From positions 1 through 29,813 of IMG/VR virus record IMGVR_UViG_3300047121_000505: a stretch of DNA of 29,813 nt; one strand, written 5' to 3'. The first letter of the stretch is position 1. Every line of letters starts with the position of its first letter. Below are positions 236-29,107 of the stretch, piece by piece. The notes under the pieces were generated by a model. The model was not told the origin of the DNA. It ran no database searches and saw only the letters and a list, made by a program, of their open reading frames with translations. This stretch comes from a virus (lineage: Duplodnaviria; Caudoviricetes). The translations under genes were made by a program, and so were the position numbers.

Positions 236-493
236 ATGGCAAGAGCAAAGAAAACCGAGACTAAAGAACTTGAAAGTATTACATCAGGTCATTATTCAAC
301 AAGAACTGTACATGGTGACGGTCGTGTAGATTTTGACATTGATTGGGATCAATTACGCACCCATATTAGCAATGCACTTGAAGAACATAATCGTACACGA
401 TTAGTTGAGGAAGCCCCCTACCACCCAGGCTACGAAGGCGCAGTCATCGAACAGCCTAAACCAAAAGCTAAAACAACAAGAAAGAAAAAATGA
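236..493 (+). CDS. Hypothetical protein, basic termini
   Basis: 85-aa ORF, GAGG SD upstream, ATGA overlap with next gene. Confidence 0.7.
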   Translation: MARAKKTETKELESITSGHYSTRTVHGDGRVDFDIDWDQLRTHISNALEEHNRTRLVEEAPYHPGYEGAVIEQPKPKAKTTRKKK

Positions 494-744
494 GATATTT
501 ACTGATTACATATTTGCGTAAATCAAGTGGTCAAATTGACGAGCAAGTTGGTTTTTCAACAAGATTGCGTGATAAAGACCTTTCATCTTGTAATGTCATT
601 GTTGATTATAAAGACAAAAAAGTGGTAAAATGTGTTATCGAAGGTAAAAAGGTAGAAACTGATTTTGGGTTAATGGACGATTATTATCGTAAAGTTTACC
701 CTGAATTAATTACTCAGTTGTCTGAAGCTGCTGATAAGACTTGA
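490..744 (+). CDS. Hypothetical phage protein
   Basis: 84-aa ORF translationally coupled to the previous ORF. Confidence 0.75.
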   Translation: MRYLLITYLRKSSGQIDEQVGFSTRLRDKDLSSCNVIVDYKDKKVVKCVIEGKKVETDFGLMDDYYRKVYPELITQLSEAADKT

Positions 745-769
745 CACCTTCAATTTCTTTTGATATAAT
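741..769 (+). promoter_or_regulatory. Sigma70-type (early) promoter
   Basis: TTGACA (741-746), 17-nt spacer, TATAAT (764-769): perfect consensus directly upstream of ORF 786. Confidence 0.85.
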
Positions 770-785
770 AGGTTTTTAGTGAGGA

Positions 786-1379
786 ATGATCTTGACAGAT
801 AGTAATTTGATTCTTGTTGATGTTGATGGTGTTTTGTGTAATTGGGAATATGCTTTTGATTGTTGGATGCAAGAGCATGGATATGCTAGAGTAAGTGGTT
901 CACAGTATGAATACAATATTGGAAAACGCTACGGTATCAGCAAAGAAGAAGGTAAGAAACTAATCAAGATTTTTAACGAATCTGCTGCCATTGGGTTTTT
1001 GCCACCATTACGTGATGCCATTCATTACGTCAAAAAGTTGCACGAAGAACATGGTTATGTGTTCCATGCAATCACTTCGCTTAGTTTAGACAAGAATGCG
1101 CAAAAACTTCGTCGAATGAATCTACAGAAATTGTTTGGAGAAACAGTTTTTGAAGAAATCATCTGTTTAGATACAGGTGCGGACAAAGATGAAGAACTTG
1201 CAAAGTATGCGGGTTCGGAATATTATTGGATCGAAGATAAGTATGCAAACTGTGAAGCAGGATTGCGGTGCGGTTTAAGACCAATTTTGATGGAACATGG
1301 ACACAATATGGAATATAGTCATCCCATGATCCCACGTGTTAAAAATTGGAAAGAAATTTACGAGATTATGGTTGGATAA
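786..1379 (+). CDS. HAD-superfamily phosphatase, 5'(3')-deoxyribonucleotidase-like
   Basis: Motif I DVDGV, conserved K, motif IV WIED, C-terminal HN...RVKNW. Confidence 0.8.
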   Translation: MILTDSNLILVDVDGVLCNWEYAFDCWMQEHGYARVSGSQYEYNIGKRYGISKEEGKKLIKIFNESAAIGFLPPLRDAIHYVKKLHEEHGYVFHAITSLSLDKNAQKLRRMNLQKLFGETVFEEIICLDTGADKDEELAKYAGSEYYWIEDKYANCEAGLRCGLRPILMEHGHNMEYSHPMIPRVKNWKEIYEIMVG

Positions 1380-1404
1380 GGCTCATTACTGAGCCTTATT
1401 TTTT
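1376..1404. terminator. Intrinsic terminator between convergent genes
   Basis: Stem ATAAGGCTCA / TGAGCCTTAT, loop TTAC, followed by a T tract. Confidence 0.8.
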
Positions 1405-2170
1405 ACCCGTATAATTTTAATACTTTTTCTATTATTGGGTGTCGTTGAACATCGGATACTGTAAATTTACATAATTGAATGGTATCAATTGGATGAAACT
1501 GTAATCGTTGTTCTAAATCAGTAAGTCCATTATCGGATCGTTTTCTATCTGATTGCTCTACATCTCCTGTAATAATAATCTTAGAATTCTCACCAATACG
1601 TGTTAACAACATTTTAAGTTGACTTGGTGTGGCATTTTGTGCTTCATCTAATATCACGTACGCATTTTTAAATGTTCTACCACGCATAAATGCTAGTGGT
1701 GATATTTCAATGATTTGTTCAGCTAACATGTGTTCAATTTCTTTTACATGATAGAATTCACGAAACACATCTAGCAATGGTCTTGTCCAAGGTTCCATTT
1801 TTTGGTTAAGATCGCCTGGTAAAAAGCCATGTTTTTCATCATCCACTGTAATCGCAGGGCGTGTTAATACTATGCGTTCGCATTGTTTGCTGCGTAATGC
1901 TTGTATAGCAGCAAGTGTGGCAAGATAAGTTTTTCCTGTACCTGCAGGACCTGTACCAACTACAACATCTACACGATCATCAGTAAGTGCAAGTATATAA
2001 TCTTCTTGGTTAACAGATTTGGGGATTAAATGTATTGATTTACGTTGACGTTGAGGATTAAACTCAATAGTGTTTTCATGTTTTTGGTAGTAGGTCTGTG
2101 TGTCTTTCTGTGGGTGTTTCATAAATTTTTCTTGTTCTTTTCGGATAGCCGAATTTTTTCTACGACTCAA
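1403..2170 (-). CDS. phoH: PhoH-family ATPase
   Basis: Walker A GPAGTGKT, LTRP, GFLPGD, FMRGRT, DEAQN, TRIGE, GDxxQ, RH motifs. Start moved to TTG at 2170 because AGGAG SD lies just upstream on the minus strand. Confidence 0.95.
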   Translation of the reverse strand: MSRRKNSAIRKEQEKFMKHPQKDTQTYYQKHENTIEFNPQRQRKSIHLIPKSVNQEDYILALTDDRVDVVVGTGPAGTGKTYLATLAAIQALRSKQCERIVLTRPAITVDDEKHGFLPGDLNQKMEPWTRPLLDVFREFYHVKEIEHMLAEQIIEISPLAFMRGRTFKNAYVILDEAQNATPSQLKMLLTRIGENSKIIITGDVEQSDRKRSDNGLTDLEQRLQFHPIDTIQLCKFTVSDVQRHPIIEKVLKLYG

Positions 2171-2209
2171 AATTACACTCCTTTTAGTAATGAGCAACTT
2201 GCTCAAACG

Positions 2210-2215
2210 TATTTA
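2210..2215 (-). promoter_or_regulatory. Putative late promoter (TAAATA) for phoH
   Basis: TATTTA on + strand = TAAATA on minus strand, 40 nt upstream of the phoH start; same motif precedes many + strand genes. Confidence 0.5.
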
Positions 2216-2322
2216 AAGATTTTATAACACGGTTTTATCACTACGTTTTTCTACAATTAAACGCATAAATACATAGCTGTTCTCCTAAAAACCCGTTTAC
2301 ATCTTCCATATCTAATAAAAGA

Positions 2323-2328
2323 TAAATA
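2323..2328 (+). promoter_or_regulatory. Putative late promoter (TAAATA)
   Basis: GATAAATAC intergenic, 20 nt before ATG 2349; resembles T4 late TATAAATA. Confidence 0.6.
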
Positions 2329-2348
2329 CTGTATCATGGAAAAATATT

Positions 2349-2960
2349 ATGCCTAAGAAAGATACATTCTTAGATTCATTAGAATGGGTTGACATTGTTA
2401 ATAACGTAAAAGGTATCATGACAAGTGATGGTACGATGGCTACGTTATTAGATTTTGAACGTGTTCTAGATGAAGCAGATTTATATGCATTTAAAAATTG
2501 GAAAATGGGCGAATTAGTTGATGGTCCTGTTATTGGGAAATATCTAGTTTCTTGTACATTTATGTGGCCCCGTTCAATGATGCCTGACCCACGTGCAGGT
2601 AGACGTTTGGTTACTTTAGGCTGTAAGGTTAAATTTAAAGAAACAAGTGTAGAAGTTCCCGTTGAAATTAAAGAACCTATGGACTATAAGCCAGGCACCC
2701 ATTACCCAAAGAAAACTAAAAAACATGTATGGTTAGTGAATATTACCATTCCTAAAACATTAATGAATGATATTCGTGAAGGTAGCGTAGATATTGCTGA
2801 GCAAACTATTGATTTAGAAGATTTAGATGATGCATATCAAAAAGATTACGATACTGAAGAAGTTAAAGGTGGTGAACAAGGTGGAGGACAACCTGTAGGT
2901 GGACCACCCATGCCACCACCTGCTCCTGCAGGACCCCCAACAGGAGGTCCACCACTATGA
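2349..2960 (+). CDS. Hypothetical phage protein with Pro/Gly-rich tail
   Basis: 203-aa ORF with typical codon usage. Confidence 0.8.
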   Translation: MPKKDTFLDSLEWVDIVNNVKGIMTSDGTMATLLDFERVLDEADLYAFKNWKMGELVDGPVIGKYLVSCTFMWPRSMMPDPRAGRRLVTLGCKVKFKETSVEVPVEIKEPMDYKPGTHYPKKTKKHVWLVNITIPKTLMNDIREGSVDIAEQTIDLEDLDDAYQKDYDTEEVKGGEQGGGQPVGGPPMPPPAPAGPPTGGPPL

Positions 2961-3493
2961 CCATATTAAACGAAAGTCTTAATTATTTGGACATGGAACA
3001 TTTGATTGTTCCTATTGTTGGTATTGACAAGTATAAATCATCAATGGGTAAAGATAGTGATATTATAACATTAAGCTTTACGGTAAAAGATGAAAATGCT
3101 GCTGAAGATTTAGTGAATTGGTTTGAACGTGGTTATGATTGGGTACTTGACTCTGATCGTAGCCCAGGCGAAGTCTCCCCCAATAAATATCTAGTGTTTG
3201 TTGAATTAGAGCGTAAAAAAATTGCAGCAAAACATATTATTACATTAATTGAAGATTTAAAAACATTAACAGGAATTCCTATTGAAAATTGGAGTTTAAA
3301 AGCGAATGGTGAAAAAGGTGATGCAAGCGTAGAGTTTATTCAAGCTAACGTTCCACTAAATTCATCTGAGTATAAAGAAGAAAATGATTTAGAATTAAAT
3401 GAATGGCGTAACATTGCAGGAGTAAGTGTACAAACTAGTGTATCTAAAGATGAAGATATATTAGCGATGCAACGTCAAGCAGGTATAATTTAA
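2957..3493 (+). CDS. Hypothetical phage protein
   Basis: 178-aa ORF, ATGA overlap. Confidence 0.8.
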   Translation: MTILNESLNYLDMEHLIVPIVGIDKYKSSMGKDSDIITLSFTVKDENAAEDLVNWFERGYDWVLDSDRSPGEVSPNKYLVFVELERKKIAAKHIITLIEDLKTLTGIPIENWSLKANGEKGDASVEFIQANVPLNSSEYKEENDLELNEWRNIAGVSVQTSVSKDEDILAMQRQAGII

Positions 3494-3503
3494 GGAAACA
3501 AGC

Positions 3504-4004
3504 ATGCCTATAACAACAATAACATTGGCACAACGTTCTGACGATGAAAAAGGTTTTGCGCTTAATGATGAAGCACATGAGCGTTTAGTTAAAGATCCAA
3601 GTGTAAAAACAGATGGTTGGCATAGCCCACATGATTTAAAAGCAGCACAACAATGGGGAGCACCACCACAAGCTAATCAAGCTGAAATCCTCAAAAACCC
3701 AGGCGGCGCAATGCAAAGCGGTCCTGCTGAAGTGCTGATCAAAACGGATGATAGTTTTGGTAACTTTATTAACAGTAAGTGGCGACCCATGATGGCTGTT
3801 ATTTACATGGTTACCTGTACATGTGATTTTGTAATATTCCCTATACTTTGGAGTGTATTACAAGCGTTAAGTCATGGACAAGTTAACAGTCAATGGATGC
3901 CAATTACCCTACAAGGTGCAGGTTTATACCATATTGCTATGGGTGCAGTGTTAGGTTTAGCAGCATATGGACGTAGCCAAGAAAAAATCGCAGGGAAAGC
4001 TTAA
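3504..4004 (+). CDS. Membrane protein, GTA_holin_3TM-like putative holin
   Basis: WRP followed by hydrophobic helices and C-terminal LGLAAYGRSQEK pattern. Confidence 0.6.
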   Translation: MPITTITLAQRSDDEKGFALNDEAHERLVKDPSVKTDGWHSPHDLKAAQQWGAPPQANQAEILKNPGGAMQSGPAEVLIKTDDSFGNFINSKWRPMMAVIYMVTCTCDFVIFPILWSVLQALSHGQVNSQWMPITLQGAGLYHIAMGAVLGLAAYGRSQEKIAGKA

Positions 4005-4018
4005 GTTTAAATAACTTA

Positions 4019-4813
4019 ATGGACCATTATCAAACATTGGGTGTGGACAGAAATGCCACACCTGATGAAATTAAAAAAGCATATCGTAAACTAGCTAGTC
4101 AACATCATCCTGATCGTGGTGGAGATACTGCTAAGTTTCAATCAATTCAAGTAGCATATGATACATTAAGCGACCCACAAAAAAAGGCAGCTTACGATAG
4201 CCCTCAACCACAATTTAATGGATTTAACCCACAGCAAGGTGGTTTTCATTTTAACTTTGGTGGTCCACAGTTTGAAGATATTTTCGGACAGTTTTTTAGA
4301 CAGCAAGCAAGACCACAAAAACGTATCTATACAGCAACCATTTTTGTCACCCTAGAACAAATTGCTAAGGGTGAACAACAAACCGTACATCTTAATACAC
4401 CAAGTGGTCCACAATTATTTAAGATTGATTTACCTAGGGGTATTGACGATGGTGCTGTAGTACGGTATGATGGGCTATTGCCTGATGGGTTACTTCAAGT
4501 TAATTTCAGGCAACATAGTCATCCACTATTTGATCGTCGAGGATTGGATATTTATTATACAGTTGATGTTTCTATTTTTGATTTAGTCATTGGTAAAAAA
4601 ATTATTGTCCCAACTATTTTAGGCAAGGAGTTAGAAATTACGATAGATCCACGTACACGTCCTAATTCAACACTTAGGTTAAATGGACATGGTATGGTAA
4701 CTCAACAAGGTCAAGGTGATCAATATGTCATTATTAAACCTGTTATGCCCGAAAGTATAGATGACGAAATCATCAGAGTTTTAGAGAAACATTGTAATGT
4801 AAATACGAAATGA
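4019..4813 (+). CDS. dnaJ: DnaJ/CbpA-class co-chaperone
   Basis: J domain with HPD, G/F-rich linker, C-terminal DnaJ_C-like region, no zinc finger. Confidence 0.9.
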   Translation: MDHYQTLGVDRNATPDEIKKAYRKLASQHHPDRGGDTAKFQSIQVAYDTLSDPQKKAAYDSPQPQFNGFNPQQGGFHFNFGGPQFEDIFGQFFRQQARPQKRIYTATIFVTLEQIAKGEQQTVHLNTPSGPQLFKIDLPRGIDDGAVVRYDGLLPDGLLQVNFRQHSHPLFDRRGLDIYYTVDVSIFDLVIGKKIIVPTILGKELEITIDPRTRPNSTLRLNGHGMVTQQGQGDQYVIIKPVMPESIDDEIIRVLEKHCNVNTK

Positions 4814-5247
4814 AATTAACTAAAAGAACGTTACACCTTGAAACCAAACCTGTAAATTTTACTTACCCAATTAAAAATGAATTATTGGGTACTGAATTAT
4901 TAAAATTTATGCACAAAAGTGGTGGTATTGGTTTAGCAGCAAATCAAGTTGGGTTGCGAGACCGTGTGTTTGTTATGAGTGTAAATGACAATGACCGTGT
5001 ATTTTATAACCCAAAAATCATTGATTTTAGTCAAAAAATGGTTCCATATACCGAAGGTTGCCTAAGTTATCCTAATGAATCGGTAGAGCTAGAAAGACCT
5101 GATACAATTATGTTAGAGTATCAAACTGCTGAAGGTAAATTCATAGCTGAATATTTTAGTAATTTAGAAGCTAGAGTTATACAGCATGAAGTTGATCACT
5201 TAAATGGAATTACAATGCATGATAGAAAATCGGAGAATAAAGAATGA
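4810..5247 (+). CDS. def: Peptide deformylase
   Basis: GIGLAANQ, EGCLS and QHEVDHL motifs. Confidence 0.95.
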   Translation: MKLTKRTLHLETKPVNFTYPIKNELLGTELLKFMHKSGGIGLAANQVGLRDRVFVMSVNDNDRVFYNPKIIDFSQKMVPYTEGCLSYPNESVELERPDTIMLEYQTAEGKFIAEYFSNLEARVIQHEVDHLNGITMHDRKSENKE

Positions 5248-7529
5248 TTACAAATCCTGAGATTGAAAGTATTATTGAAGAAGCAATTCGTATTGCTAAA
5301 ACTAAAAAACATGCTTATGTTACATTAGAACATGCGTTGTTAAGTATGATTACCTATGATTCATTTAGAAAACTACTTGATGATTTTGGCGTAGATACTG
5401 AGCAAATGATTACTGAAGTAAATGGTTATCTAGATTCAATGAATACTTTAGTAGTAAATGCTCCTACTGATGATACTGAATCTGAAATTGCCCCTAAGAA
5501 AACTAATTCACTAGAGCGAGTTTTCAATCGTGCAGTAACACAAGTATTGTTTACAGGGCGCAGACAAATTGAAATTATTGACTTGTATGCGTCATTAATG
5601 CAAGAAACAAATAGTCACGCACATTATTTCTTATTAAAATGGGGCATAACACGTTCTGAATTCATTCAATATTGGAACAAAAAACAAAAATCAATTAAAC
5701 ATAGTTCAAAACTATCTGAAGAACAAGCTAATGAAATACTAGAAGAACATACTATTAATCTTACTCATTTAGCAAAGAAAGGTAAAATTGAACCATTAAT
5801 TGGGCGTGAAACTGAAGTAGAAGATATTATTAATGTTTTAGCTAAACGATTTAAATCAAATGTATTAATGGTTGGCGACCCAGGCGTTGGTAAAACCGTT
5901 ATCGCTGAAGGTTTAGCACAACGTATTATTGATGAAGAAGTTCCACCATTCCTACTAGAACATGAAGTATATTCATTAGAAGTAGGATCATTGCTTGCAG
6001 GATCTAAGTATCGTGGTGACTTTGAAGAAAAAGTCAAACAAGTTATGGAAGCACTAGCAAGCAAGCCAAAAACAATCTTGTTTATTGACGAAGCACATAC
6101 TATGCGAGGTAGTGGTAATGGTAGTGGTGGTAGCGTAGATTTTGCTAACATGATTAAACCTGCTATTACTAAAGGTAATCTAAAAATTATAGCAAGTACA
6201 ACATGGGAAGAATATTACGAGTCATTTGAAAAAGATCGTGCATTAATGCGTCGATTCTATCGTGTTTCTATTGATGAACCTGATCGTGATACTACCATTA
6301 ATATTCTTACAGGTTTAAGTCAACGTTTGCAAAAGTTTCATGATGTTGTTATTGAAAAAGATGCTATTGAAGCATCAGTGACGTACAGTAGTCGATATAT
6401 ACATGAGCGTAAAAACCCTGATAAAAGTATTGATCTATTAGATGCAGCATGTGCAAAACAACGTGTAGCTAATAATAATGGTGCAATTATTAATGAAGCT
6501 AGTATCAAAGAACAAGTTACTAGAATGTGTGGGGTTTCACCTGACAAATTAAGCGGTGATAACTCAGATAAGATGATTAATCTTGAGGGTAATATCAAGT
6601 CTAAATTGTTTGGTCAAGATGAAACCGTTGAACAAATTCTAGAACGTATCTATGTTAGTTATGCAGGTATTTCAAATGAAAAGAAACCTATGGCAAGTTT
6701 CTTATTTTTGGGACCAACAGGTAGTGGTAAGACTGAAACCGCACGTTTATTAAGTGAATACCTTAGTATGCCATTGTTGCGTTATGATATGAGTGAATAT
6801 CAAGAAAAGCATAGTGTTGCTGCGTTGATTGGGGCACCTCCTGGGTATGTGGGGTATGGGGAAGGTAATCTTGGTGGTGGAAAAATTATCAATGATTTAA
6901 GTAAAAACCCATATGCAATACTATTGTTTGATGAAGTTGAAAAAGCACATCCTGACGTTTATAACCTATTCTTGCAATTATTAGATGAAGGTAGAATTAC
7001 TAGTACAAATGGTAAAACTGTTGATGCCAAGAATACTATCATCATTATGACAAGTAATTTAGGAGCAAGAGATAGTGAACGAGCAAACATTGGGTTTGGG
7101 TCAACACAAAAAACGGGTGAAGATGATAAAGCATTAAAAGAATTTTTCAAGCCTGAATTACGTAATCGTATTGATATGGTTTGTAAGTTCAAAAAGTTAG
7201 ATAATCTTGCGATTAAAAAAATTGTGGTTAAATTTGTTAATGAACTTAAGTCACAATTATTATCACAGCATGATATTACGTTGAATTTAGCCGAAGACAC
7301 TGTTGAATATCTAGCTAAGGTTGGGTACGATGACAAAATGGGAGCACGTCCACTTGCACGTAAAATTGATGAAGTCATTCGTGTACCGTTAAGTAAAAAG
7401 ATCTTGTTTGAGCGTCTTAAATCATCGGTTGTTAATACCACAGTGGTTGATGACAAGATCGAATTTACTGCAGAAGTAAAATTAAATAGGACTAGCGTAA
7501 TTGGAACAGATGGTATTATCAGGGTTTAG
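5244..7529 (+). CDS. clpA: ClpA-like AAA+ unfoldase
   Basis: Clp N domain, NBD1 GDPGVGKT/LFIDE, pore loop KYRG, NBD2 GPTGSGKT/GYVG/LFDE, IGF ClpP-docking loop, no ClpB middle domain. Confidence 0.92.
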   Translation: MITNPEIESIIEEAIRIAKTKKHAYVTLEHALLSMITYDSFRKLLDDFGVDTEQMITEVNGYLDSMNTLVVNAPTDDTESEIAPKKTNSLERVFNRAVTQVLFTGRRQIEIIDLYASLMQETNSHAHYFLLKWGITRSEFIQYWNKKQKSIKHSSKLSEEQANEILEEHTINLTHLAKKGKIEPLIGRETEVEDIINVLAKRFKSNVLMVGDPGVGKTVIAEGLAQRIIDEEVPPFLLEHEVYSLEVGSLLAGSKYRGDFEEKVKQVMEALASKPKTILFIDEAHTMRGSGNGSGGSVDFANMIKPAITKGNLKIIASTTWEEYYESFEKDRALMRRFYRVSIDEPDRDTTINILTGLSQRLQKFHDVVIEKDAIEASVTYSSRYIHERKNPDKSIDLLDAACAKQRVANNNGAIINEASIKEQVTRMCGVSPDKLSGDNSDKMINLEGNIKSKLFGQDETVEQILERIYVSYAGISNEKKPMASFLFLGPTGSGKTETARLLSEYLSMPLLRYDMSEYQEKHSVAALIGAPPGYVGYGEGNLGGGKIINDLSKNPYAILLFDEVEKAHPDVYNLFLQLLDEGRITSTNGKTVDAKNTIIIMTSNLGARDSERANIGFGSTQKTGEDDKALKEFFKPELRNRIDMVCKFKKLDNLAIKKIVVKFVNELKSQLLSQHDITLNLAEDTVEYLAKVGYDDKMGARPLARKIDEVIRVPLSKKILFERLKSSVVNTTVVDDKIEFTAEVKLNRTSVIGTDGIIRV

Positions 7530-8184: not shown

Positions 8185-8204
8185 ATATATAACAGGAGGC
8201 TTTT
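8163..8204 (+). promoter_or_regulatory. Late promoter in hairpin loop with SD in the stem
   Basis: CCTCCTG (8167-8173) / CAGGAGG (8193-8199) stem, TAAATA at 8182-8187 in loop, ATG at 8205. Confidence 0.7.
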
Positions 8205-8369
8205 ATGGCTAAAATTCAAGAAGAAATTGTTGTTATACGTTTAAGTAAGTTAATTAAAGATACTGAAACTATAACAACATTAACTGATAAGGATTTTGCA
8301 CCAAGTTTAGAAGCAATTGTTCAAGAATTACTTGATAGTAATATTATTGTTGAGGTGGAGAAACAATAA
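8205..8369 (+). CDS. Small hypothetical protein (54 aa, MAKIQEEIVVIRLSKLIKD...)
   Basis: Not in ORF track; strong AGGAGG SD, TAATG overlap with next gene. Confidence 0.8.
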   Translation: MAKIQEEIVVIRLSKLIKDTETITTLTDKDFAPSLEAIVQELLDSNIIVEVEKQ

Positions 8370-8707: not shown

Positions 8708-8708
8708 T

Positions 8709-20534: not shown

Positions 20535-23258
20535 ATGTCATATGTTGACGCATTATTAGATCGTGAATCTGATAAAATTCACATTGTCGAACGTGATAAA
20601 AAAGGTAAACGCATTTATCAAGAATACAAAGCAAAATACCTTTTTTACTATACTGACCCAAAAGGAAAATACCGTAGTGTATACGGAGATTCCTTGTCTA
20701 AAATTACAGCGTCAAACAAAAATGAATTCATAAAAGAATTGCGCATACATCGGACTAAATCACAGATATTTGAAAGTGATATTAATCCTGTTTTTAGGTG
20801 CTTATCTGATAATTATTTGGATATGCCACCACCAAACTTGCATGTATGCTTTTTTGATATTGAGGTAAACTTTGATCCTGATAAAGGATTTGCCCCAACT
20901 GATGACCCATTCAACGCAGTAAACTCAATCTCTTTATACTTAGATTGGATGGACGCATTAATTACATTATGTATTCCACCTACAGGTTATACTGAAGAAC
21001 AAGTTAAAGAAACTGTTAAGCATTTTGAAAATACCATAGTTTGTAAAAATGAAATTGAAATGTTTAACTTGTTCTTTGACCTGATTGAAGATGCAGACGT
21101 ACTAACAGGTTGGAATAGTGGAGGATACGATATTCCATACATGGTTAATCGTGTTACCCAAGTTATGTCTAAGGATGATACTCGCAGATTTTGTCTGTTT
21201 AATCAATATCCACGCCAACGTGAATTTGTGCAGTTTGACCAAAAACAAGTCACTTATGACTTGGTTGGTCGAGTACACATGGACTATCTTGAATTATACA
21301 AGAAGTATAACTACGAACAACGTCATAGTTATAAATTAGATTATATTGGGGAAATGGAAGTTGGAGAAAAGAAAACCCAATATGAGGGCACACTAGACCA
21401 ACTTTATAACAAAGATTGGAAAACATTTCTTGAATATAACAGACAAGATACAATGTTGTTATATAAGATTCATGCTAAGCTTAAATTCTTAGATTTAGCA
21501 AACAGTATTGCACATCAAAATACAGTGTTGTTGCCTACCGTAATGGGTAGTGTAGCTATGATTGAACAAGCTGTTATTAATGAGGCACATTCACGTGGGC
21601 TTATTATTCCTGATAAACCATATCGTACTGAAGAAGATGAAACCAAAGCTGCGGGTGCATATGTCGCTTACCCTAAAAAAGGTATTCATGAATGGATTGC
21701 TGCAGTTGATTTGAATTCTCTATATCCATCAACGATTCGTGCATTAAACATGGCACCTGAAACTATTGTTGGACAACTTAAGCAAACATTAACCGACCAA
21801 TATTTATATGACAAAAGTCAAAAATTAGCACGTGAAAAGAAAAAGAATCGTAAGGTTGCGGAGGATGAAGAAGTTGAAGGAGAAGATGGTCCTATCTTAT
21901 GGGAAGGATTATTTGGCACACTAGAATATACCGCAGTAATGAACCAAGAGCGTGATACCATGATTACCATAGAATGGGAACGTGGAAAAGCACAAGAGTT
22001 CAGTGCTGCTGAGGTGCATAAACTTATTTTCGATAGTGGCAAACCATGGATCTTAAGTGCTAATGGTACAATTTTTACCTATGAGAATGAGGGGGTGATA
22101 CCTGGGTTGTTGACGAGATGGTATAGCGAACGTAAACAAATTCAAAAGCAACTTAAAGAAGCCAAGACTCCTGAAGAAGCAGAGTTTTTTGATAAGCGAC
22201 AACTTGTACGTAAGATTTTGCTTAATTCTGCATATGGTGCATTGTTAAATCAACATTGTCGATTTTATGATAAGCGTATTGGACAAAGTACGACACTAAC
22301 AGGTAGGCAAATTGTCAAGCACATGAGTGCAACCTTAAATGAATTAATTGCAGGTGAATATGATCACACAGGTGAAGCTATTGTTTATGGCGATACTGAT
22401 TCTTGTTATTTTAGTGGATGGCCTATTTGGTCAAAAGACGAAAATTTAAGAAAGAATTGGACTAAAGAATATGCGATTGAGATATACGATGATCTAGGTA
22501 ATACGGTTAATTCAACATTTCCTGATTTCATGCATCGTGCTTTTCATTGTCCACCAAAGAATGGAAATATTATTGTAGCAGGTCGTGAATTAGTAGCTGA
22601 TCGTGGATTATTCATTACGAAAAAACGTTATGCAGTTAATATCTATGACAAAGAGGGTAAGCGTTTAGATAAGAATGGTGCTACAGGTAAAATCAAAGCC
22701 ATGGGCTTAGATTTGAAACGTGCGGATACACCAAAGTTTGTTCAAGAATTTTTGTTTAGTGTATTAGAAAGTGTACTTGCAGGTGCGACCAAAGAAGATA
22801 CAATTCAGCAAATCATTGAATTTAAAAAACGTTTGCGTGATATGCCTAGTTGGAACAAGGGTAGTCCTAAAGCAGTTAACAAGCTAACACTATATGAACA
22901 AAAATTAAAGAAAAGTAAGGATGGCAAAGTCAACATGCCAGGCCACGTTCGTGCAAGCCTTAATTGGAATTTTTTACGTGAGTTAAATCATGATAACTAC
23001 AGTACTAAGATTACTAATGGTGCTAAGGTTATTGTGTGTAAGTTACAGAACAATGTTCTTAATTTTACAAGTATTGCGTACCCAACAGATGAGTTACGGT
23101 TGCCAAAATGGTTTACAGAATTACCATTTAATGATAAAGAAATGGAATATACGTTGGTAGATAAAAAGATTGATAACTTAATAGGTGGGCTTGATTGGGA
23201 CTTAGAACGAACCACTAACATTTATAATACATTTGATTCGCTGTTTACGTTTGAGTAA
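20535..23258 (+). CDS. Family B DNA polymerase (T4 gp43-like)
   Basis: Exo FDIE, GWN..YD, YNRQD; pol DLNSLYPS, KILLNSAYG, YGDTDS, KKRY; C-terminal clamp-binding TFDSLF. Confidence 0.97.
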   Translation: MSYVDALLDRESDKIHIVERDKKGKRIYQEYKAKYLFYYTDPKGKYRSVYGDSLSKITASNKNEFIKELRIHRTKSQIFESDINPVFRCLSDNYLDMPPPNLHVCFFDIEVNFDPDKGFAPTDDPFNAVNSISLYLDWMDALITLCIPPTGYTEEQVKETVKHFENTIVCKNEIEMFNLFFDLIEDADVLTGWNSGGYDIPYMVNRVTQVMSKDDTRRFCLFNQYPRQREFVQFDQKQVTYDLVGRVHMDYLELYKKYNYEQRHSYKLDYIGEMEVGEKKTQYEGTLDQLYNKDWKTFLEYNRQDTMLLYKIHAKLKFLDLANSIAHQNTVLLPTVMGSVAMIEQAVINEAHSRGLIIPDKPYRTEEDETKAAGAYVAYPKKGIHEWIAAVDLNSLYPSTIRALNMAPETIVGQLKQTLTDQYLYDKSQKLAREKKKNRKVAEDEEVEGEDGPILWEGLFGTLEYTAVMNQERDTMITIEWERGKAQEFSAAEVHKLIFDSGKPWILSANGTIFTYENEGVIPGLLTRWYSERKQIQKQLKEAKTPEEAEFFDKRQLVRKILLNSAYGALLNQHCRFYDKRIGQSTTLTGRQIVKHMSATLNELIAGEYDHTGEAIVYGDTDSCYFSGWPIWSKDENLRKNWTKEYAIEIYDDLGNTVNSTFPDFMHRAFHCPPKNGNIIVAGRELVADRGLFITKKRYAVNIYDKEGKRLDKNGATGKIKAMGLDLKRADTPKFVQEFLFSVLESVLAGATKEDTIQQIIEFKKRLRDMPSWNKGSPKAVNKLTLYEQKLKKSKDGKVNMPGHVRASLNWNFLRELNHDNYSTKITNGAKVIVCKLQNNVLNFTSIAYPTDELRLPKWFTELPFNDKEMEYTLVDKKIDNLIGGLDWDLERTTNIYNTFDSLFTFE

Positions 23259-23271
23259 ACATCTAAATTAC

Positions 23272-23299
23272 TTGATTATTACCAATAGAGTCTTATAAT
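23272..23299 (+). promoter_or_regulatory. Possible sigma70-type promoter
   Basis: TTGATT, 16-nt spacer, TATAAT upstream of the clamp gene. Confidence 0.45.
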
Positions 23300-23316
23300 C
23301 ATACAAAGGATAAAAC

Positions 23317-24036
23317 ATGAGAGATTATTTATTAGACTTGATTCAACATACTTGTTCATTAGGATTTATTGATCTTATTAAAGTAACAGGTACAGACAAG
23401 TCAACTATTATTAACGCAGTAGCAGATGATCATACTGTTATTGTGCAAGGAGTATTCCATACAGCACAGGATGATTTTATTGGTATGTTTGGTATGCCTA
23501 ATTTAACCAAACTCAAGACTATTTTAAAGTTTGAGGATTATGATAAAAACGCATCAATAACAATGACACGAACTAATGAAGGAGCACCAACTGCAATACA
23601 TTTTGAAACTGCTAATGGTGATTTTGTTAATGATTATAGATTAATGTCTGAGTTACTTGTTAAAGAACGTGTTAAAGCTGTTAAGTTCGCAGGTGCAATA
23701 TGGAACATACACTTTGAACCAAAGCTTGCAAATATCCAACGATTGAAACGACAAATGCAAGCCAATAGTGATGAAAACACCTTTGTTTTAAAACAAGAAG
23801 GCAATGATTTAAAAATTTATATGGGTAAAGCTACAACACATAGTGGTAATTTTGTGTTTGAAGCAAATGTTACGGGTAAGGTTACAAAATCATACTCATG
23901 GCCTGTTAGACAATTTATCAGCATCATGGACCTCCCAGGCGACAAATCCATCTACATCAGTGACTCACCCGCTATGCGCATTACAGTGGATAGTGGTTTA
24001 GCAAATTACGAATATATGTTACCCGCACAATTATGA
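23317..24036 (+). CDS. Sliding clamp (T4 gp45-like)
   Basis: 239 aa, alternating alpha/beta pattern, FG..NL, terminal Y.Y.LPA, directly after the polymerase. Confidence 0.7.
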   Translation: MRDYLLDLIQHTCSLGFIDLIKVTGTDKSTIINAVADDHTVIVQGVFHTAQDDFIGMFGMPNLTKLKTILKFEDYDKNASITMTRTNEGAPTAIHFETANGDFVNDYRLMSELLVKERVKAVKFAGAIWNIHFEPKLANIQRLKRQMQANSDENTFVLKQEGNDLKIYMGKATTHSGNFVFEANVTGKVTKSYSWPVRQFISIMDLPGDKSIYISDSPAMRITVDSGLANYEYMLPAQL

Positions 24037-24374
24037 TTAAAACTATAAACACAGGAAAAGGTATAAAAGTAAACCAAACATATCCCGCTGATATTTACAT
24101 CAGCCCAGGCGCACAAGGTGCAGGGCATGTTCGTTGGAATTCAAACATTAATTGTTTGGAAATTAATGATGGTAGTTATTGGAAATGCTTAAATTGGAAT
24201 TATCCGACCATAGAACTTGACACCGAGACGCAAGAAATACTAGAATGGGCAAAAAATAAAATGGCGCAAGAGCGAGAAGTTGAGAAATTAGCTAAAGAAT
24301 ATCCTGCTGTTGCTGAAATTAAAGAAAAAATGGATTTGATTTTAAATTTGGTAAAGGATCATAAAGGAGGGTAA
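24033..24374 (+). CDS. Hypothetical phage protein
   Basis: 113-aa ORF, ATGA overlap. Confidence 0.75.
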   Translation: MIKTINTGKGIKVNQTYPADIYISPGAQGAGHVRWNSNINCLEINDGSYWKCLNWNYPTIELDTETQEILEWAKNKMAQEREVEKLAKEYPAVAEIKEKMDLILNLVKDHKGG

Positions 24375-24376
24375 TC

Positions 24377-24595
24377 ATGCCATATCGTGAGCGAATCAAG
24401 CATTTAGAAGAATTACATCGTTTTGTTGACAAACAAATACTTGACATTGAAAATCAAAAGAGTTATATTCCTGAGCAAGTAACAACCTTAAAGAAACGTA
24501 AGCTACAATTAAAAGATGAAATTACTAGATTGGAACGCTTACAATTTGAAGCCACAAGTGGTCGTGAGACCGAAATATGGAGTGATGAAAGATAA
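24377..24595 (+). CDS. DUF465/YdcH-like coiled-coil protein
   Basis: H..VD.QI...LKKRKLQLKDEI signature; GGAGG SD. Confidence 0.75.
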   Translation: MPYRERIKHLEELHRFVDKQILDIENQKSYIPEQVTTLKKRKLQLKDEITRLERLQFEATSGRETEIWSDER

Positions 24596-24972
24596 TGGAT
24601 TATACTGAACAAAGAACTCTTGCAATGAAAGAACGCAAACAACGTGTCTTGGAGCAAAGTTTAATTTATGTTCGTAAAAAAAGTCGCATTAAAAACTTTT
24701 TTAATACATCAATTGAAGTAGAATGTAAAAACAATAACTTTGATATTTCTGTAATTAATCAGGTAATCAAAGATGTAAATCAAGCTGATATTGGAAAACC
24801 TAAATGTGATGATGATTTAAATTTTTGTAGTAAAATCTCAGATGAACTTTTCCAACGTCTAGCAAATCATTTTGTAGATAGTGACATTAAAATTACTACT
24901 ACAGAAAGCAGTGGTGGAGCAATCACCAAACATTATCGTAGTTATAAACCTAGTTTATCAATTAAAATTTAA
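24595..24972 (+). CDS. Hypothetical protein, possibly degenerate T-fold (QueD-like)
   Basis: 125-aa ORF, TAATG overlap; fold guess is weak. Confidence 0.6.
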   Translation: MDYTEQRTLAMKERKQRVLEQSLIYVRKKSRIKNFFNTSIEVECKNNNFDISVINQVIKDVNQADIGKPKCDDDLNFCSKISDELFQRLANHFVDSDIKITTTESSGGAITKHYRSYKPSLSIKI

Positions 24973-24985
24973 GGAAGCAAACAGT

Positions 24986-25213
24986 ATGAGTAAAGCAAGT
25001 AAAGGTCGTAACTTTTTCAGTACTAACGAACCAATTTTTGAACAGTTAGAAAATTATCTAAACTTTTGTAAGGATTATGGTTATCGTTATGATGAACGTG
25101 ATTTAACCAATATGCGTAGTTACGCTTTTCAGCAATACCAAAAGTTTTTGAAAAATAAAAATTTTAAAAACATGTGGGAAGAAGATTTGAAAAAGATGGA
25201 ATCAGATTATTAA
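24986..25213 (+). CDS. Hypothetical phage protein
   Basis: Start moved to ATG 24986 (AAGGA SD, removes overlap with previous gene). Confidence 0.7.
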   Translation: MSKASKGRNFFSTNEPIFEQLENYLNFCKDYGYRYDERDLTNMRSYAFQQYQKFLKNKNFKNMWEEDLKKMESDY

Positions 25214-25219
25214 TTTTCC

Positions 25220-25256
25220 AAACTTCCCCCATCTAAATAACAGGTGGGGGAAGTTT
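25220..25256 (+). promoter_or_regulatory. Hairpin with TAAATA in loop and G-rich SD in stem (may also terminate)
   Basis: AAACTTCCCCCATCT / AGGTGGGGGAAGTTT, TAAATA 25234-25239, ATG 25258. Confidence 0.65.
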
Positions 25257-25257
25257 A

Positions 25258-25893
25258 ATGTCTTTTATATACATATTTGAAAAATCAATACCTTATAGTT
25301 TTGAACAAGAAATATACGATACATTTACACGTATAAATTTTCCATGGTATGGTTTAAATTTAACTACATATCATGAGGTAGAAACTTCGTATGAAAATGG
25401 TGATCTAGTCAGAAAAGATTACTATTTTGACGAAAACACTTTTGAATATTATCATTTAACTCATCTTTTTATGGAAGATGATCAGATAATATCTCCATAT
25501 TATCCAATTATTAAAAAATTTATAAATTATATTAACATTGACCAAAATAAAATAGAAAGTATTGTCAAAGTTAAAGCTAATTTACAAACATTCTATAAGA
25601 CTGATAAACTTTATAATCCTCCTCATTACGATTATTATCGTTTAACTAAAGATAAAAAAGTGATAAAACCCGATGATAAGTATGTCGTAGGTATATATCA
25701 CGTCAACGACTCAGATGGCTTTACGTATATTTTTGAAAACGATGAAAAGCCATTCAAAATAAGTCATAAGGTTGAATCTAAAAAAGGTCAATTAATCTTA
25801 ATGGATGGATCCGTACTTCACGCAGGATCGCATCCAAAAACAGGATATAGAATCGTACTAAATTTTTTAATAAAGCTGAAAAATGATATTTAA
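25258..25893 (+). CDS. 2OG-Fe(II) oxygenase-like protein
   Basis: PHYD (HxD), YHVNDSDG.T, LHAGSHP, RIVLNF. Confidence 0.75.
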   Translation: MSFIYIFEKSIPYSFEQEIYDTFTRINFPWYGLNLTTYHEVETSYENGDLVRKDYYFDENTFEYYHLTHLFMEDDQIISPYYPIIKKFINYINIDQNKIESIVKVKANLQTFYKTDKLYNPPHYDYYRLTKDKKVIKPDDKYVVGIYHVNDSDGFTYIFENDEKPFKISHKVESKKGQLILMDGSVLHAGSHPKTGYRIVLNFLIKLKNDI

Positions 25894-26362
25894 CCGTATA
25901 AAAGAACTGAAAAATAGTGGTCTAAAAATTGGTATTACTTGTAGCCAATTTGATTTGCTTCATGCAGGGCATATTGCTATGTTATCTGAAGCCAAACAAC
26001 ACTGTGACTATCTTATCGCTGCCCTACAAAATGATGCTAGTTTAGATAGACCTACAAAAAATCGACCTGTACAGTCTATCGTAGAACGACAAATACAACT
26101 TAGTGCTACACGTTTTGTTGATGAAATTGTTATCTACAATACAGAAAAAGACCTTGAAGATTTGTTTCTTGTTCTGCCTATTGATATGAGAATACTAGGT
26201 ATTGAATACAAAGATAAAGATTTTACAGGAAAACAGATATGCCTTGACCGTGGGATAGAATTAATTTATAATGGGCGTGACCATAGCTTTAGCTCAAGTT
26301 CATTGCGCAAGCGTGTTATGGAGGCTGAAATGCAACGGGTCAATCAATCCGAAAAGTGGTAA
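25883..26362 (+). CDS. Cytidylyltransferase (TagD/glycerol-3-phosphate CTase family)
   Basis: FDLLHAGH (HxGH), ER, VDE, R...SSS motifs. Confidence 0.9.
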   Translation: MIFNRIKELKNSGLKIGITCSQFDLLHAGHIAMLSEAKQHCDYLIAALQNDASLDRPTKNRPVQSIVERQIQLSATRFVDEIVIYNTEKDLEDLFLVLPIDMRILGIEYKDKDFTGKQICLDRGIELIYNGRDHSFSSSSLRKRVMEAEMQRVNQSEKW

Positions 26363-26372
26363 AAATACCACA

Positions 26373-26401
26373 TTGTTATTTTATTATTATCCTGATATAA
26401 T
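26373..26401 (+). promoter_or_regulatory. Possible sigma70-type promoter
   Basis: TTGTTA, 17-nt spacer, TATAAT. Confidence 0.5.
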
Positions 26402-26424
26402 TAGGATATCTTATGGAGGTAGTT

Positions 26425-26631
26425 ATGAAATATCTTGTTGATCGTCCTGACTTTAAACTATACATGAATGTAGATTCATGTGTATCACCTACTGATTTAC
26501 GTAATGTTACGTTTACACGAGAACTGTGGGATGTAGAGAAAAATAAGTGTATAATGACTAGTACTTTTGAGTTGTTTATTCCACGTAAACAACTTAACGA
26601 ACTTGCCGCACAACTTATTGAGAATTCTTAA
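26425..26631 (+). CDS. Small hypothetical protein
   Basis: ATG 26425 preceded by GGAGGT SD. Confidence 0.7.
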   Translation: MKYLVDRPDFKLYMNVDSCVSPTDLRNVTFTRELWDVEKNKCIMTSTFELFIPRKQLNELAAQLIENS

Positions 26632-26633
26632 TC

Positions 26634-27680
26634 ATGCGTAGACTAGGATTTGCCTGTAAATGGATTGACAATGCTGATCAAGTCAATGGTATCAAACCCA
26701 CTGATGATTGCAAGAAATACAATACAGGTACTACAACCCGTACTTGGTTAAATAAACAAGTACGCAGTGTTGCTGAAGATAAACTTTGGAACTTAATGAA
26801 GGGTAACATCGAAGCAACACGGTTACTAGTCAAACGTGTAGGAGAATTAGATGAAGACCTTAGGATGGTTCGCCTTAGTAGTGATCTCCTTCCTGTATAC
26901 ACTGAGCCATCATGGAGTTATTTCTATCAGCAACCTGATGTTGTTCGATATCTTGAACGCCATTTTGCAGTTATTGGTGATAGTGCTAGAGAAAACGGTG
27001 TACGTTTGTCTTTTCATCCTGGTCAGTTTTGTGTTCTTGCTAGTGATAACGAGAATATTGTTGAGAATTCGTTAAAGGAGTTTGAATATCATGCGGATAT
27101 GGCCCGTTACATGGGGTTTGGAAAAAGCTTTCAGGACTTTAAGATCAACGTCCACCTTGCGGGTAAACAAGGTGCCACAGGTTTCAGACGTGCGTATGCA
27201 AAACTCTCACCCGAATCCCGCAGTTGTATTACAATTGAAAACGAAGAAATAACCTATGGACTCGATGATTGCCTTCAACTTAGTGATATTGTTCCTATTG
27301 TCCTTGATATTCATCACCATTGGTGTAAAACAGGACAGTATATCGCCTTGGATGATGAACGCATCGATAGGGTTATACATAGTTGGAGGGGTGTGCGCCC
27401 TGTCATCCATTATTCTGTCAGTCGTGAGGATGTATTGGTAAAACACGATAAGCATACTATGCCTAACTTTCAATTATTAACTGAAAGTGGTCATAAGAAA
27501 CAAGACCTACGTGCACATAGTGATTTCTTTTGGAACAGTGCAGTTAACCGTTGGGCAATGTCTCATTGGGTATGGGGTGATATGATGTGCGAAAGCAAAG
27601 CAAAAAATCTTGCTAGCTTTAAGCTGTATGAAGAACATAAAAAGAATAGTATGATTCTTGTAGAGGATTGTTATGTTTGA
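26634..27680 (+). CDS. uvsE: UV-damage endonuclease (UvsE/UVDE)
   Basis: LGFAC, RLSS, RLSFHPGQF.VL.S, IENEE, LDIHHH, HYS, AHSD, ESKAK. Confidence 0.92.
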   Translation: MRRLGFACKWIDNADQVNGIKPTDDCKKYNTGTTTRTWLNKQVRSVAEDKLWNLMKGNIEATRLLVKRVGELDEDLRMVRLSSDLLPVYTEPSWSYFYQQPDVVRYLERHFAVIGDSARENGVRLSFHPGQFCVLASDNENIVENSLKEFEYHADMARYMGFGKSFQDFKINVHLAGKQGATGFRRAYAKLSPESRSCITIENEEITYGLDDCLQLSDIVPIVLDIHHHWCKTGQYIALDDERIDRVIHSWRGVRPVIHYSVSREDVLVKHDKHTMPNFQLLTESGHKKQDLRAHSDFFWNSAVNRWAMSHWVWGDMMCESKAKNLASFKLYEEHKKNSMILVEDCYV

Positions 27681-28098
27681 AAAGTTAAAAGCATTGTGGA
27701 ATAAGCCTGTACCTATTCCACCCGAACCACCAAAAACTGAAGCAAAAAAAGAACGTAAGAAAAAAGAAGAGCAACTTAGCCCAAAAGAAATTGCAACTAA
27801 TAACAATGAACCTTACGTAGCTATTACTAGTGTTGAGGTAGATCCAAGTAATATTAATTCAGGAAGTTTTGAACTTGACTTTAACGATAAGTTCGTGATA
27901 AACTTGATCAAAGCAGGTTACAAATTGCGTGAAACAGATAGCGATGTTGATATTGTTGATCGTTGGTTCCAAACAGTTTGTCGTAATATTGCACTAGAAG
28001 TATACGAGCAACAAGATGCTGATCCTAGAAACCGTGACGCTGATATCCGTGTAGTTAGATCAAGGAACATTGGAAATGGAAGATCCGAAGTCAGTTAA
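27673..28098 (+). CDS. Hypothetical phage protein
   Basis: 141-aa ORF with GAGG SD. Confidence 0.75.
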   Translation: MFEKLKALWNKPVPIPPEPPKTEAKKERKKKEEQLSPKEIATNNNEPYVAITSVEVDPSNINSGSFELDFNDKFVINLIKAGYKLRETDSDVDIVDRWFQTVCRNIALEVYEQQDADPRNRDADIRVVRSRNIGNGRSEVS

Positions 28099-29107
28099 GT
28101 ACATCATTATTGATACCGCTAACTTATTTTTTAAATCAAAATATATTGCTAGTCGTAGCCAAACCGATGATGAACGTGTTGGTATGGCATTACATCTTAC
28201 ACTACAAAGTGCGCACACTATGGTTCGCAAATTTAGTGGACAAGCACCTGTACATGTTGTTTTTGCCCTTGAAGGACGTAGTTGGCGTAAACAGTTTTAC
28301 GAACCATACAAACGTAACCGTATGGTTAAAGAAGCTGCAAAAACACAAAGTGAAGTAGAATTAGATGATTTGTTTAATAATACCTACAATGAGTTTATAA
28401 AGTTTCTTAACGATAAAACCAATGTATCAGTCATACGATGTAATAATGCGGAAGCAGACGATATCATTGCACGTTTTATCCAACTTCACCCAAATAATGA
28501 TCATGTTATTATAAGTAGTGATACTGACTTTGATCAATTGATTGCGTCTAATGTTCAACGTTACAATAGTTTAGCTAATCAACTTATTACCATTGATGGA
28601 TACTTTGATGAAAACGGTAAAAAGGTAATTGACAACAAAACCAAAGAGCATAAAACATTAGGTGATCCACAATTTATACTGTTTGAAAAATGTATGCGTG
28701 GTGATAGTACTGACAATATTTTCAGTGCTTACCCAGGTGTACGTAAAAAATCCACCAAAAAAACCATTGGATTGATTGAAGCTTATGCTGATCGTGAGAA
28801 AAAAGGATTTAATTGGAACAATGTTATGCAGCAGCATTGGGTTGATCATAACGGTATAGAACACAAAGTCAAAGATGATTATGAACGTAATCGTGTGCTT
28901 ATTGATTTGACTATGCAACCACAAGAAATCAAAGATGCACTTGATACAGTCATAACAGAAGTTGTAAATAAAAAACCTGTTGGGCAAATTGGTATAGAAT
29001 TTATGAGATTTTGTGGTAAATACCAATTGATTAAAATATCAGAATCAGCAGATTATTATCTAGATTGGTTAAAGAAACCATATGTTGGAAATTTAATACA
29101 TGAATGA
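28070..29107 (+). CDS. rnh: 5'-3' exonuclease / T4 RNase H-like flap nuclease
   Basis: IID.., SWRK..Y.PYK.NR, EADD, SSDTDF.Q, GDSTDNI motifs; exact start uncertain. Confidence 0.9.
   Translation: MEMEDPKSVKYIIIDTANLFFKSKYIASRSQTDDERVGMALHLTLQSAHTMVRKFSGQAPVHVVFALEGRSWRKQFYEPYKRNRMVKEAAKTQSEVELDDLFNNTYNEFIKFLNDKTNVSVIRCNNAEADDIIARFIQLHPNNDHVIISSDTDFDQLIASNVQRYNSLANQLITIDGYFDENGKKVIDNKTKEHKTLGDPQFILFEKCMRGDSTDNIFSAYPGVRKKSTKKTIGLIEAYADREKKGFNWNNVMQQHWVDHNGIEHKVKDDYERNRVLIDLTMQPQEIKDALDTVITEVVNKKPVGQIGIEFMRFCGKYQLIKISESADYYLDWLKKPYVGNLIHE

Follow-up and report, generated by a model that had tools for sequence, protein, structure and literature searches.

Very-short-patch repair by the Dcm/Vsr system corrects T:G mismatches at a CCWGG-like word, favouring C at the word itself and enriching it, and at PRDM9 hotspots motif erosion with GC-biased gene conversion shifts the composition of the neighbourhood, G and C changing symmetrically over hundreds of bases. 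A survey of lytic dsDNA phages found the avoidance of restriction sites to be chiefly a matter of orthodox Type II systems; it is rare for Type III sites and was not seen for those of Type I or IIG (PMC6286503, Rusinov et al. 2018), and the word 'flank' is absent from the survey. Bases outside the recognition site alter the cleavage rates of EcoRI and EcoRV, an effect described for a few neighbouring base pairs, symmetric enzymes and in vitro conditions (PMC4081073). The present analysis concerns part of a jumbo phage genome, 29.8 kb in length (IMG/VR record IMGVR_UViG_3300047121_000505, positions 1 to 29,813, hereafter 'the window'), in which the tetranucleotide CCAG is avoided and its surviving copies are surrounded by a 'halo' of C at silent positions on the CCAG strand. 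Searches of open-access full texts returned no description of base composition shifting on a single strand around an avoided word. The halo is real, strong and clade-wide, and its mechanism is probably either protective selection or targeted mutagenesis.

Counting both strands of the window (1..29813), CCAG occurs 27 times against an expectation of 129.6, CCGG and CGCG are absent (14.5 and 32 expected, respectively) and CCTG is over-represented (195 against 118.6). The depletion of CCAG is five- to eightfold across the clade, defined as contigs with a polymerase identity of at least 80% together with those joined to them by walking; in G014, for example, 95 copies are found where 757 are expected. 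Depending on the reading frame, the word has been purged through all four of its bases. The proline codon CCA is used before G-starting codons other than those of glycine in 10/837 cases, as opposed to 1455/2430 elsewhere; C precedes CAG in 3/313 cases and CAA in 263/1978; and NCC precedes AGN in 1/940 cases against 651/5480. The Pro-Gly dipeptide is itself depleted in the clade (233 against 363 expected), which is not the case in 17 other jumbo phage loci (395 against 269). As a single hypermutable base could not cause loss through each of the four positions, selection demonstrably acts against the word. The survivors are mostly Pro-Gly sites (22 of the 27 in the window), since this dipeptide must contain CCAG, CTGG or CCGG and the last is nearly absent, the proline codon chosen being CCA or CCT in 169 of 170 instances.

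The purging of a short word by silent changes, through every position and in all frames, resembles restriction-site avoidance as described in the survey (PMC6286503), from which it differs in that an asymmetric 4-mer is purged throughout a clade and the survivors reshape 33 bases on one strand. CCAG sites encoding Met-Pro-Ala are also kept, with halos, which we attribute to the alternative codon generating GCAGGC, likewise an avoided sequence. Other words nearly absent from the pooled clade contigs include GCAGGC (17 against 198), CAGCTG (4 against 173), GACATC (21 against 169), GCACGC (5 against 94), CCGTGC (1 against 50) and CGATCG (0 against 64); TCGA is avoided mainly in the G009/L177 lineage. 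The ordinary pattern of phage restriction-site avoidance fits CCGG, CGCG, CAGCTG and other palindromes. An LpnPI-like enzyme of the MspJI family, with the site CmCDG, would cover CCAG, CCGG and CCTG; such a target was rejected, as CCTG is neither avoided nor surrounded by a halo (ratio 0.99).

The halo was quantified as the number of C bases at C-permitting silent sites on the CCAG strand between positions -11 and +21. Around the 27 window sites, C occupies 91/183 such positions where 22.5 would be expected, and G, in the same footprints, 12/155 where 16.3 would be expected. Among 10,000 random sets of 27 proline codons lacking CCAG, the frequency averaged 0.123 and was at most 0.215, as against the 0.497 observed. 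Ranked against all 4-mers with at least five sites in the window, CCAG comes first with a z score of 13.0, the next unrelated word scoring 3.8; the strand-specific excess over control words anticipated in the preliminary description is thus significant, and not symmetric, G not being raised. Halos are absent around ACAGG, GCAGG, TCAGG, CCAA, CCAT and CCAC and around all 12 single-mismatch variants of CCAG, and after CCAG is masked no 4- or 5-mer exceeds a ratio of 1.6 as a second anchor. Other strongly avoided 6-mers (GCAGGC, GACATC, GCACGC and others) have no halo at their few survivors, which are probably young sites and hence a weak control, and for CCGG, considered as a possible two-strand form of the CCAG site, the small sample of 12 usable copies gives 11 C against 8.3 and 15 G against 8.0. 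The preliminary description took CCAGG to be the anchor; such sites do carry halos, but so do CCAGC sites (C at 33/89 against 9.5 expected), and the anchor is actually CCAG.

With survivors so often encoding Pro-Gly, the pattern might be thought an artefact of that dipeptide's context, of codon-pair bias or of imported GC-rich patches. This is the least credible of the explanations considered and is refuted by an orientation control. The same dipeptide has C-rich neighbouring third positions when written CCA GG (C 0.42, G 0.09; 177 sites) and G-rich ones when written CCT GG (C 0.07, G 0.35; 150 sites), and the halo is absent from those relatives that do not avoid CCAG. First-position silent choices in leucine and arginine codons shift as well, the Leu TTR:CTN ratio being 18:45 inside footprints and 140:65 outside, from which it follows that the effect acts on DNA rather than on wobble decoding. 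As had been suggested at the outset, the bias tracks the orientation of the motif and not that of the gene, halos being present with the gene on either strand.

Nine related jumbo phage contigs all avoid CCAG and exhibit the halo, with z scores (and site numbers) of 14.5 (64) in G001, 17.7 (87) in G006, 17.5 (21) in G007, 4.1 (12) in G008, 13.0 (83) in G009, 12.2 (49) in G010, 13.6 (31) in G012, 23.8 (95) in G014 and 18.6 (69) in G015, a range of 4 to 24; these are not fully independent, as homologous sites are shared between contigs and G007 represents the window's own species. Halo strength varies by lineage, from 0.31 in G008 to 0.69 in G007. All 74 loci with a polymerase identity of 68% or less lack a halo, none exceeding a z score of 2.7, and the further non-clade loci among those listed likewise have none. 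Across 473 kb, CCAG is present on the C-rich strand in 29 of the 31 most pronounced patches of single-strand C enrichment.

A footprint of 15-25 nt to each side had initially been proposed. Instead it is asymmetric: it runs from approximately -11 to +21, and there are shoulders at -13 and +23. In the pooled profile of 524 sites, the log odds for C stay around 2 between -10 and +14, with peaks at -1 and +5, and fade in the 3' direction to 1.4, 1.1 and 1.0 at +17, +20 and +23; on the 5' side, where the edge is sharper, they fall to 0.8 at -13 and are near zero farther out. Only every third position is sampled in this profile, nearly all sites being Pro-Gly. C is never placed where CCAG, CCGG or CGCG would result (0/111). 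Among non-C bases at 337 isolated sites, G is raised at -1 (53 against 15) and -4 (38 against 20) and lowered from +5 to +24 (98 against 152), and T is raised over A only between +5 and +15. Beyond the 5' edge there is a weak G excess of 1.26 (interval 1.09-1.45), derived mostly from two lineages.

A polarised Type III or IIG (MmeI-like) target would fit a one-strand footprint running from -11 to +21 or +23 and longer on its 3' side. MmeI cleavage at 20/18 and that of EcoP15I are both one-sided, although we know of no preference against flanking C in MmeI-like or Type III enzymes. Members of the MmeI family (PMC2582602) and Type III Mod/Res systems share an asymmetric site, one modified strand and cleavage far to one side, but no such gene can be tied to the host of this phage.

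C is gained at the expense of A, T and G, with 328 A against 510 T remaining where a ratio of 639:804 would be expected. Silent sites permitting only A or G are unchanged (G 114 against 125), and at isleucine codons on the opposite strand, where C is not an option, T is raised (50 against 27.6). The erosion of PRDM9 motifs is comparable in that a motif is lost and its surroundings shift, but here the shift involves C only, on one strand, over 33 bases; GC-biased gene conversion was rejected on account of the unchanged A/G-only sites and the fall of G on the 3' side. Silent sites in the halo behave independently of one another. Each additional C adds about 1.8 to the log enrichment, as far as 7 C, and C at silent sites is no scarcer where fixed C is plentiful, so that the one does not stand in for the other (rho -0.02, 390 sites). 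Neither a minimum number of C bases nor the breaking of C-free runs was supported as the underlying rule, no neighbour-base rule was found for responsive sites (AUC 0.65), and there is no shift at codon positions 1-2 in footprints. Avoidable CCAG sites are mostly bare, with C at 46/263 positions against 30.5 expected.

The speed and spectrum of halo formation can be read from substitutions. At four-fold degenerate sites, comparison of a motif-bearing lineage with a motif-less relative gives A-to-C changes at 27/78 and T-to-C changes at 28/78, the corresponding gains elsewhere being 3.9% and 6.3%. At lineage-specific CCAGG sites, C is already present at 85/169 silent positions against 29/169 in the motif-less relative, which indicates that halos form quickly after a site arises. 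The preliminary description had named three candidates for a motif-anchored, strand-specific process: the process itself, acting over tens of bases, is supported, but none of the candidates holds as written. Two of them, Vsr-like repair of T:G to C:G and protection of the strand from C-to-T decay, would account for C rising and T falling on one strand near a Dcm-like word, and yet both are highly improbable. A-to-C gains as frequent as those from T rule them out as the source of the changes, unless the gains from A come from a second process, and in equilibrium fits even complete protection yields only 0.17-0.20 C and T-only gain 0.24-0.28, compared with 0.47-0.49 observed. Composition models restricted to transitions score far worse (1665.7 for T-only gain and 1731.9) than an added equal rate to C (1392.5). 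Unlike the outcome of Dcm/Vsr action, moreover, the word is depleted, A and G convert too, the patch lies on both sides and the halo is strand-specific within CCWGG. The C5-methyltransferase for which a search had been suggested was not found, PF00145 matching in 0/13 records, all fragmentary and 11 of them clade contigs; no search aimed at Vsr was made. Of the third candidate, the general idea that selection acts close to the recognition site of a hostile enzyme still stands, with the gain of C as the selected change; the removal of T, as it was first put, is the wrong description, as A falls more.

Besides beating the transition-only models, the added rate is preferred over a multiplied one (1413.8), and C in halos follows background context with a slope of 0.37 +- 0.08, not 1; together these point to a gain that ignores the normal mutation spectrum. 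A homogeneous rate fit returns a gain of x2.07 and a loss of x0.25, the pair predicted by a single selection coefficient of 2.1, but it is sensitive to heterogeneity among sites and so is not decisive for selection. Tree fits used star trees with family-level branch lengths, and left out sites where C makes a banned word and positions beyond +15; just 12 events are polarised by at least two motif-less lineages. Over 113 events, an added gain at about 65% of sites with loss unchanged (951.9) is preferred to constant selection (983.7). For the 69 conserved events, gain with site classes (590.2) and selection (594.6) are close, and gain without site classes is worse (622.5). Lineage-specific sites are better fitted by fast gain (356.2) than by constant selection (387.4), and require a gain of roughly tenfold or more.

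That requirement bears on motif-tied biased mismatch repair or gene conversion, whereby any base mispaired with G of the CTGG strand would be replaced by C on the CCAG strand. Glycosylases of the MIG type act on T, U, A and G opposite G, and such a process predicts an approximately twofold gain, strong retention, conversion of three bases and independence of sites, in agreement with the homogeneous fit to old halos and with the absence of compensation. Nevertheless, we regard it as unlikely: repair of replication errors could at most double the gain, the process multiplies rates whereas the composition favours an added one, and scanning 298 proteins of the window and its related contigs against Pfam turned up no MIG-type glycosylase.

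A motif-anchored mutagenic patch is a more serious contender, if still a tentative one. An enzyme would nick at a fixed distance from CCAG, and in the error-prone refilling of some 33 bases the CCAG strand would receive C, or else the complementary strand would receive G across from T, A and G. On this view the halo is a scar and not an adaptation, the word being avoided because it attracts damage. More broadly, a natural process of motif-directed, strand-specific rewriting of about 33 bases, in which A, T and G on one strand become C ten to thirty times faster than normal and which has driven the purge of the word from a whole clade, is possible but rather doubtful. The C-richness of lineage-specific sites argues for such a patch, as do the best overall tree fit, the equality of A-to-C and T-to-C gains, the additive composition and shallow background slope, and the independence of sites without compensation. 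The sharper 5' edge near -11 to -13 would suit a fixed-distance nick, and the weak G excess beyond it a break there, although that excess comes mostly from two lineages. The patch at 13379-13419, where CCAG 13390 and CTGG 13405 lie on opposite strands, both avoidable, differs from relatives mostly by to-C changes on a motif strand, and reads as a cascade in which such changes gave rise to a second site; the 17-base core has nine exact IMG/VR matches, eight in unrelated sequence and the ninth in the window's own species, and no donor was found. We know of no enzyme with such a to-C spectrum. Besides the family B polymerase, fragments of a DNA polymerase III alpha subunit are present (L334:8828-10501 and L183:16336-16842), a possible error-prone repair activity.

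Several observations tell against a mutagenic patch. Old halos need an unexplained class of about 35% unresponsive sites, which context did not reveal, and the G preferences at -1 and -4 are left without explanation. Amino acid divergence is 0.117 inside footprints and 0.124 nearby, and changes involving C are no more common inside (27/55) than nearby (82/164). Nor are within-species differences, assessed between near-identical assembled contigs, in excess: 1211 silent and 2568 other footprint positions have no differences except for one in the motif itself (permutation P 0.088), and none lies between -40 and +50 of a CCAG outside the motif, where permutation would give 21 (P 0.011). As the differences are clustered, in a manner resembling imported patches, the absence of differences from footprints is weak evidence.

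On balance, we lean towards selection as the cause of the halo, acting against an attack that is anchored at CCAG, treats the two strands differently and is dampened by C; we favour this over the less probable mutagenic patch. An enzyme would dock on CCAG in one orientation and then damage or block the DNA, its effect shrinking as the CCAG strand carries more C and the other strand more G. The phages purge CCAG wherever the code allows, and where a site has to be kept, the CCAG strand fills with C at its silent positions between -11 and +21. The halo would have been selected for protection, one agent presumably driving both it and the avoidance. This requires flank effects of the same kind as those of EcoRI and EcoRV (PMC4081073), which differ from the 33-base, one-strand, one-base genomic signature described here. 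Such selection is preferred because the word itself is demonstrably selected against, because the position preferences of G and T in the flanks would be impossible for a process that only changes bases to C, because old halos keep their C without an ad hoc class of sites, and because there is no sign of raised mutation in proteins or within species, though these tests are weak. As A and T convert equally fast, the selection would need to be strong and episodic, in a very large population where the supply of mutations is not limiting.

There are a number of points against this account. Returns do not diminish, the rise of about 1.8 log units per C up to 7 C exceeding the word's own apparent cost of 3-5 units. 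Constant selection describes lineage-specific sites poorly, and the added rate outperforms the multiplied one with a background slope well below 1; the additive gain and the poor constant fit demand the extra assumption that selection is episodic. The two sites in the 13379-13419 patch carry halos despite being avoidable, the dearth of within-species differences lends weak support, the attacking enzyme was not found and the candidate modifier described below is not sufficient. The agent might be a stable host defence or a nuclease of the phage's own; avoidance of an asymmetric word throughout a clade is unusual for variable host systems, judging by the avoidance survey (PMC6286503), which keeps a phage-encoded agent in contention.

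C could protect as a plain base or through modification by the phage. The 298 proteins scanned against Pfam came from the window, G006, G009, G012 and G014, short open reading frames and some shared genes being omitted. PF00303, the thymidylate synthase family that includes dCMP hydroxymethylase, gave a match in 0/5 clade records, fragments that together span most of the genome; ThyX is present in the clade. A NUMOD3-nuclease-Mom fusion (P0001, L184:14764-16377), encoded on the strand opposite its neighbours, occurs in G006, G008 and G015, and an N4/N6-type methyltransferase with an SPPY motif (P0002, L330:9420-10442), inside a tRNA region, in G009 alone. The Mom protein of phage Mu provides a precedent for base hypermodification as a shield, acting on A in an SAS context (PMC13219725). 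The candidate modifier is an ABC-ATPase-GNAT protein (P0123, L333:6478-7536), present in three clade contigs and 39% identical to a pT24 protein, whose family was predicted by Iyer and colleagues to acylate a DNA base (PMC7824862). The clade has both a Mom-nuclease fusion and this predicted modifier, but differs from Mom shielding in that C gain is not concentrated next to A, odds ratios being similar beside the other bases.

The ABC-GNAT family is very large and uncharacterised (7995/8000 candidates scored); clade copies are 75-94% identical and the rest at most 60%, and outside the clade it was found in one of five near-complete relatives. By sequence it has no informative solved relative, and no similarity to the Mom fusion. 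As a sufficient cause it was rejected: no 4- to 6-mer is surrounded by a halo in the carriers G021 (360 kb), PX29 or pT24 (50 kb each), which makes the enzyme at most one of two required parts. These carriers avoid CCAGG (96 against 439 in G021, 5 against 24 in PX29 and 0 against 10 in pT24), which may be due to chance, avoidance of CCWGG being common.

The sites that the preliminary description cited as C-rich are so on the motif strand, as given here by footprint and C count. On the plus strand these are CCAG 425 (414..446, 7/8), 3164 (3153..3185, 4/8), 3699 (3688..3720, 5/6), 18553 (18542..18574, 5/8), 22938 (22927..22959, 5/8) and 23935 (23924..23956, 7/7); on the minus strand they are CTGG 6841 (6823..6855, 5/7, reading as G in the gene), 10045 (10027..10059, 3/9), the pair 18065 and 18077 (18047..18091, 3/7 and 2/6) and 22102 (22084..22116, 7/7), all of them Pro-Gly. 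Sites 22102 and 22938 are in opposite orientations within the family B DNA polymerase gene, and 6841 shares the ClpA-type ATPase gene with CCAG 5880 (5869..5901, plus, 3/7). The remaining Pro-Gly sites on the plus strand are CCAG 2691 (2680..2712, 4/7), 9091 (9080..9112, 3/7), 14355 (14344..14376, 3/7), 19195 (19184..19216, 4/9), 24105 (24094..24126, 3/8) and 28733 in the 5'-3' exonuclease gene (28722..28754, 2/7), and those on the minus strand are 1816 in phoH (1798..1830, 3/7), CTGG 14200 (14182..14214, 2/5), CTGG 14657 (14639..14671, 2/6) and CTGG 27019 in uvdE (27001..27033, 2/5). CTGG 15934 (15916..15948, minus, 3/7) encodes Ala-Gly. Two avoidable plus-strand sites have no halo: the Pro-Glu site at 12324 (12313..12345), with C at 0/5 and G at 4/6, and the Ile-Gln site at 7959 (7948..7980), with C at 0/5. 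The latter had been proposed to be young, and its first C is indeed polymorphic among near-identical genomes.

The Pfam-matched genes of the window encode the family B DNA polymerase, the ClpA-type ATPase, DnaJ, PhoH, UvdE and the 5'-3' exonuclease. Its polymerase shares 48% identity with the enzyme of Sinorhizobium phage Phosso and 44% with that of Atu_ph07. The clade genome is roughly 350 kb, overlapping contigs spanning most of one genome. Sequencing runs holding the window sequence are labelled lake or freshwater, with one from wastewater. The host is likely a betaproteobacterium, to judge from the porin of a related contig, whose nearest named matches, beyond mostly unnamed relatives, are from Burkholderiales (32-38% identity). 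Positions 11751-17105 hold two mosaic genes, encoding 908 aa and a 734 aa ART-PolyVal protein, with modules swapped among strains; they are 92-95% identical to G001 and G006, and about 77% elsewhere. G009 (L331-L336) carries many host-type genes, including those for PhoX, a phosphate-binding protein, a porin, ClpP, ClpX, IscU, IMPDH, TerC and AhpC, as well as several radical SAM enzymes.

Patterns anchored on other words were seen in two further cases. In L227, a 15.9 kb locus of a distant jumbo phage, just five CTCG sites have 15 C nearby against 2.6 (z 8.3), possibly a second halo system or a repeat artefact. G017 and G018 (L434-L437) have a C excess at CCTTG (z 7.5-8.5), with CCTA and CTTA avoided; coding repeats are the likely reason, the word being very frequent.

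None of Vsr repair, protection from deamination, Mom shielding or GC-biased conversion agrees with the CCAG signature, which also exceeds site avoidance. Whichever of the two leading readings applies, the genome preserves a base-by-base footprint of a DNA-acting enzyme, revealing the word (CCAG, possibly CCRG), the strand, how far the enzyme reaches (-11 to about +21) and which base it prefers. If selection is responsible, these phages would have added to site avoidance a further level of anti-defence evolution, in which the flanks of irremovable sites are tuned, and a defence system or phage nuclease with an unusually long, one-strand sensitivity would be indicated. Should that agent turn out to be a restriction enzyme of Type III or IIG, the finding would reduce to a variant of site avoidance. 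If mutation is responsible, there would be a natural targeted mutator with a spectrum familiar to us from no system. As scanning for halos needs sequence alone, it may be applied to all phage genomes in search of other hidden enzyme footprints.

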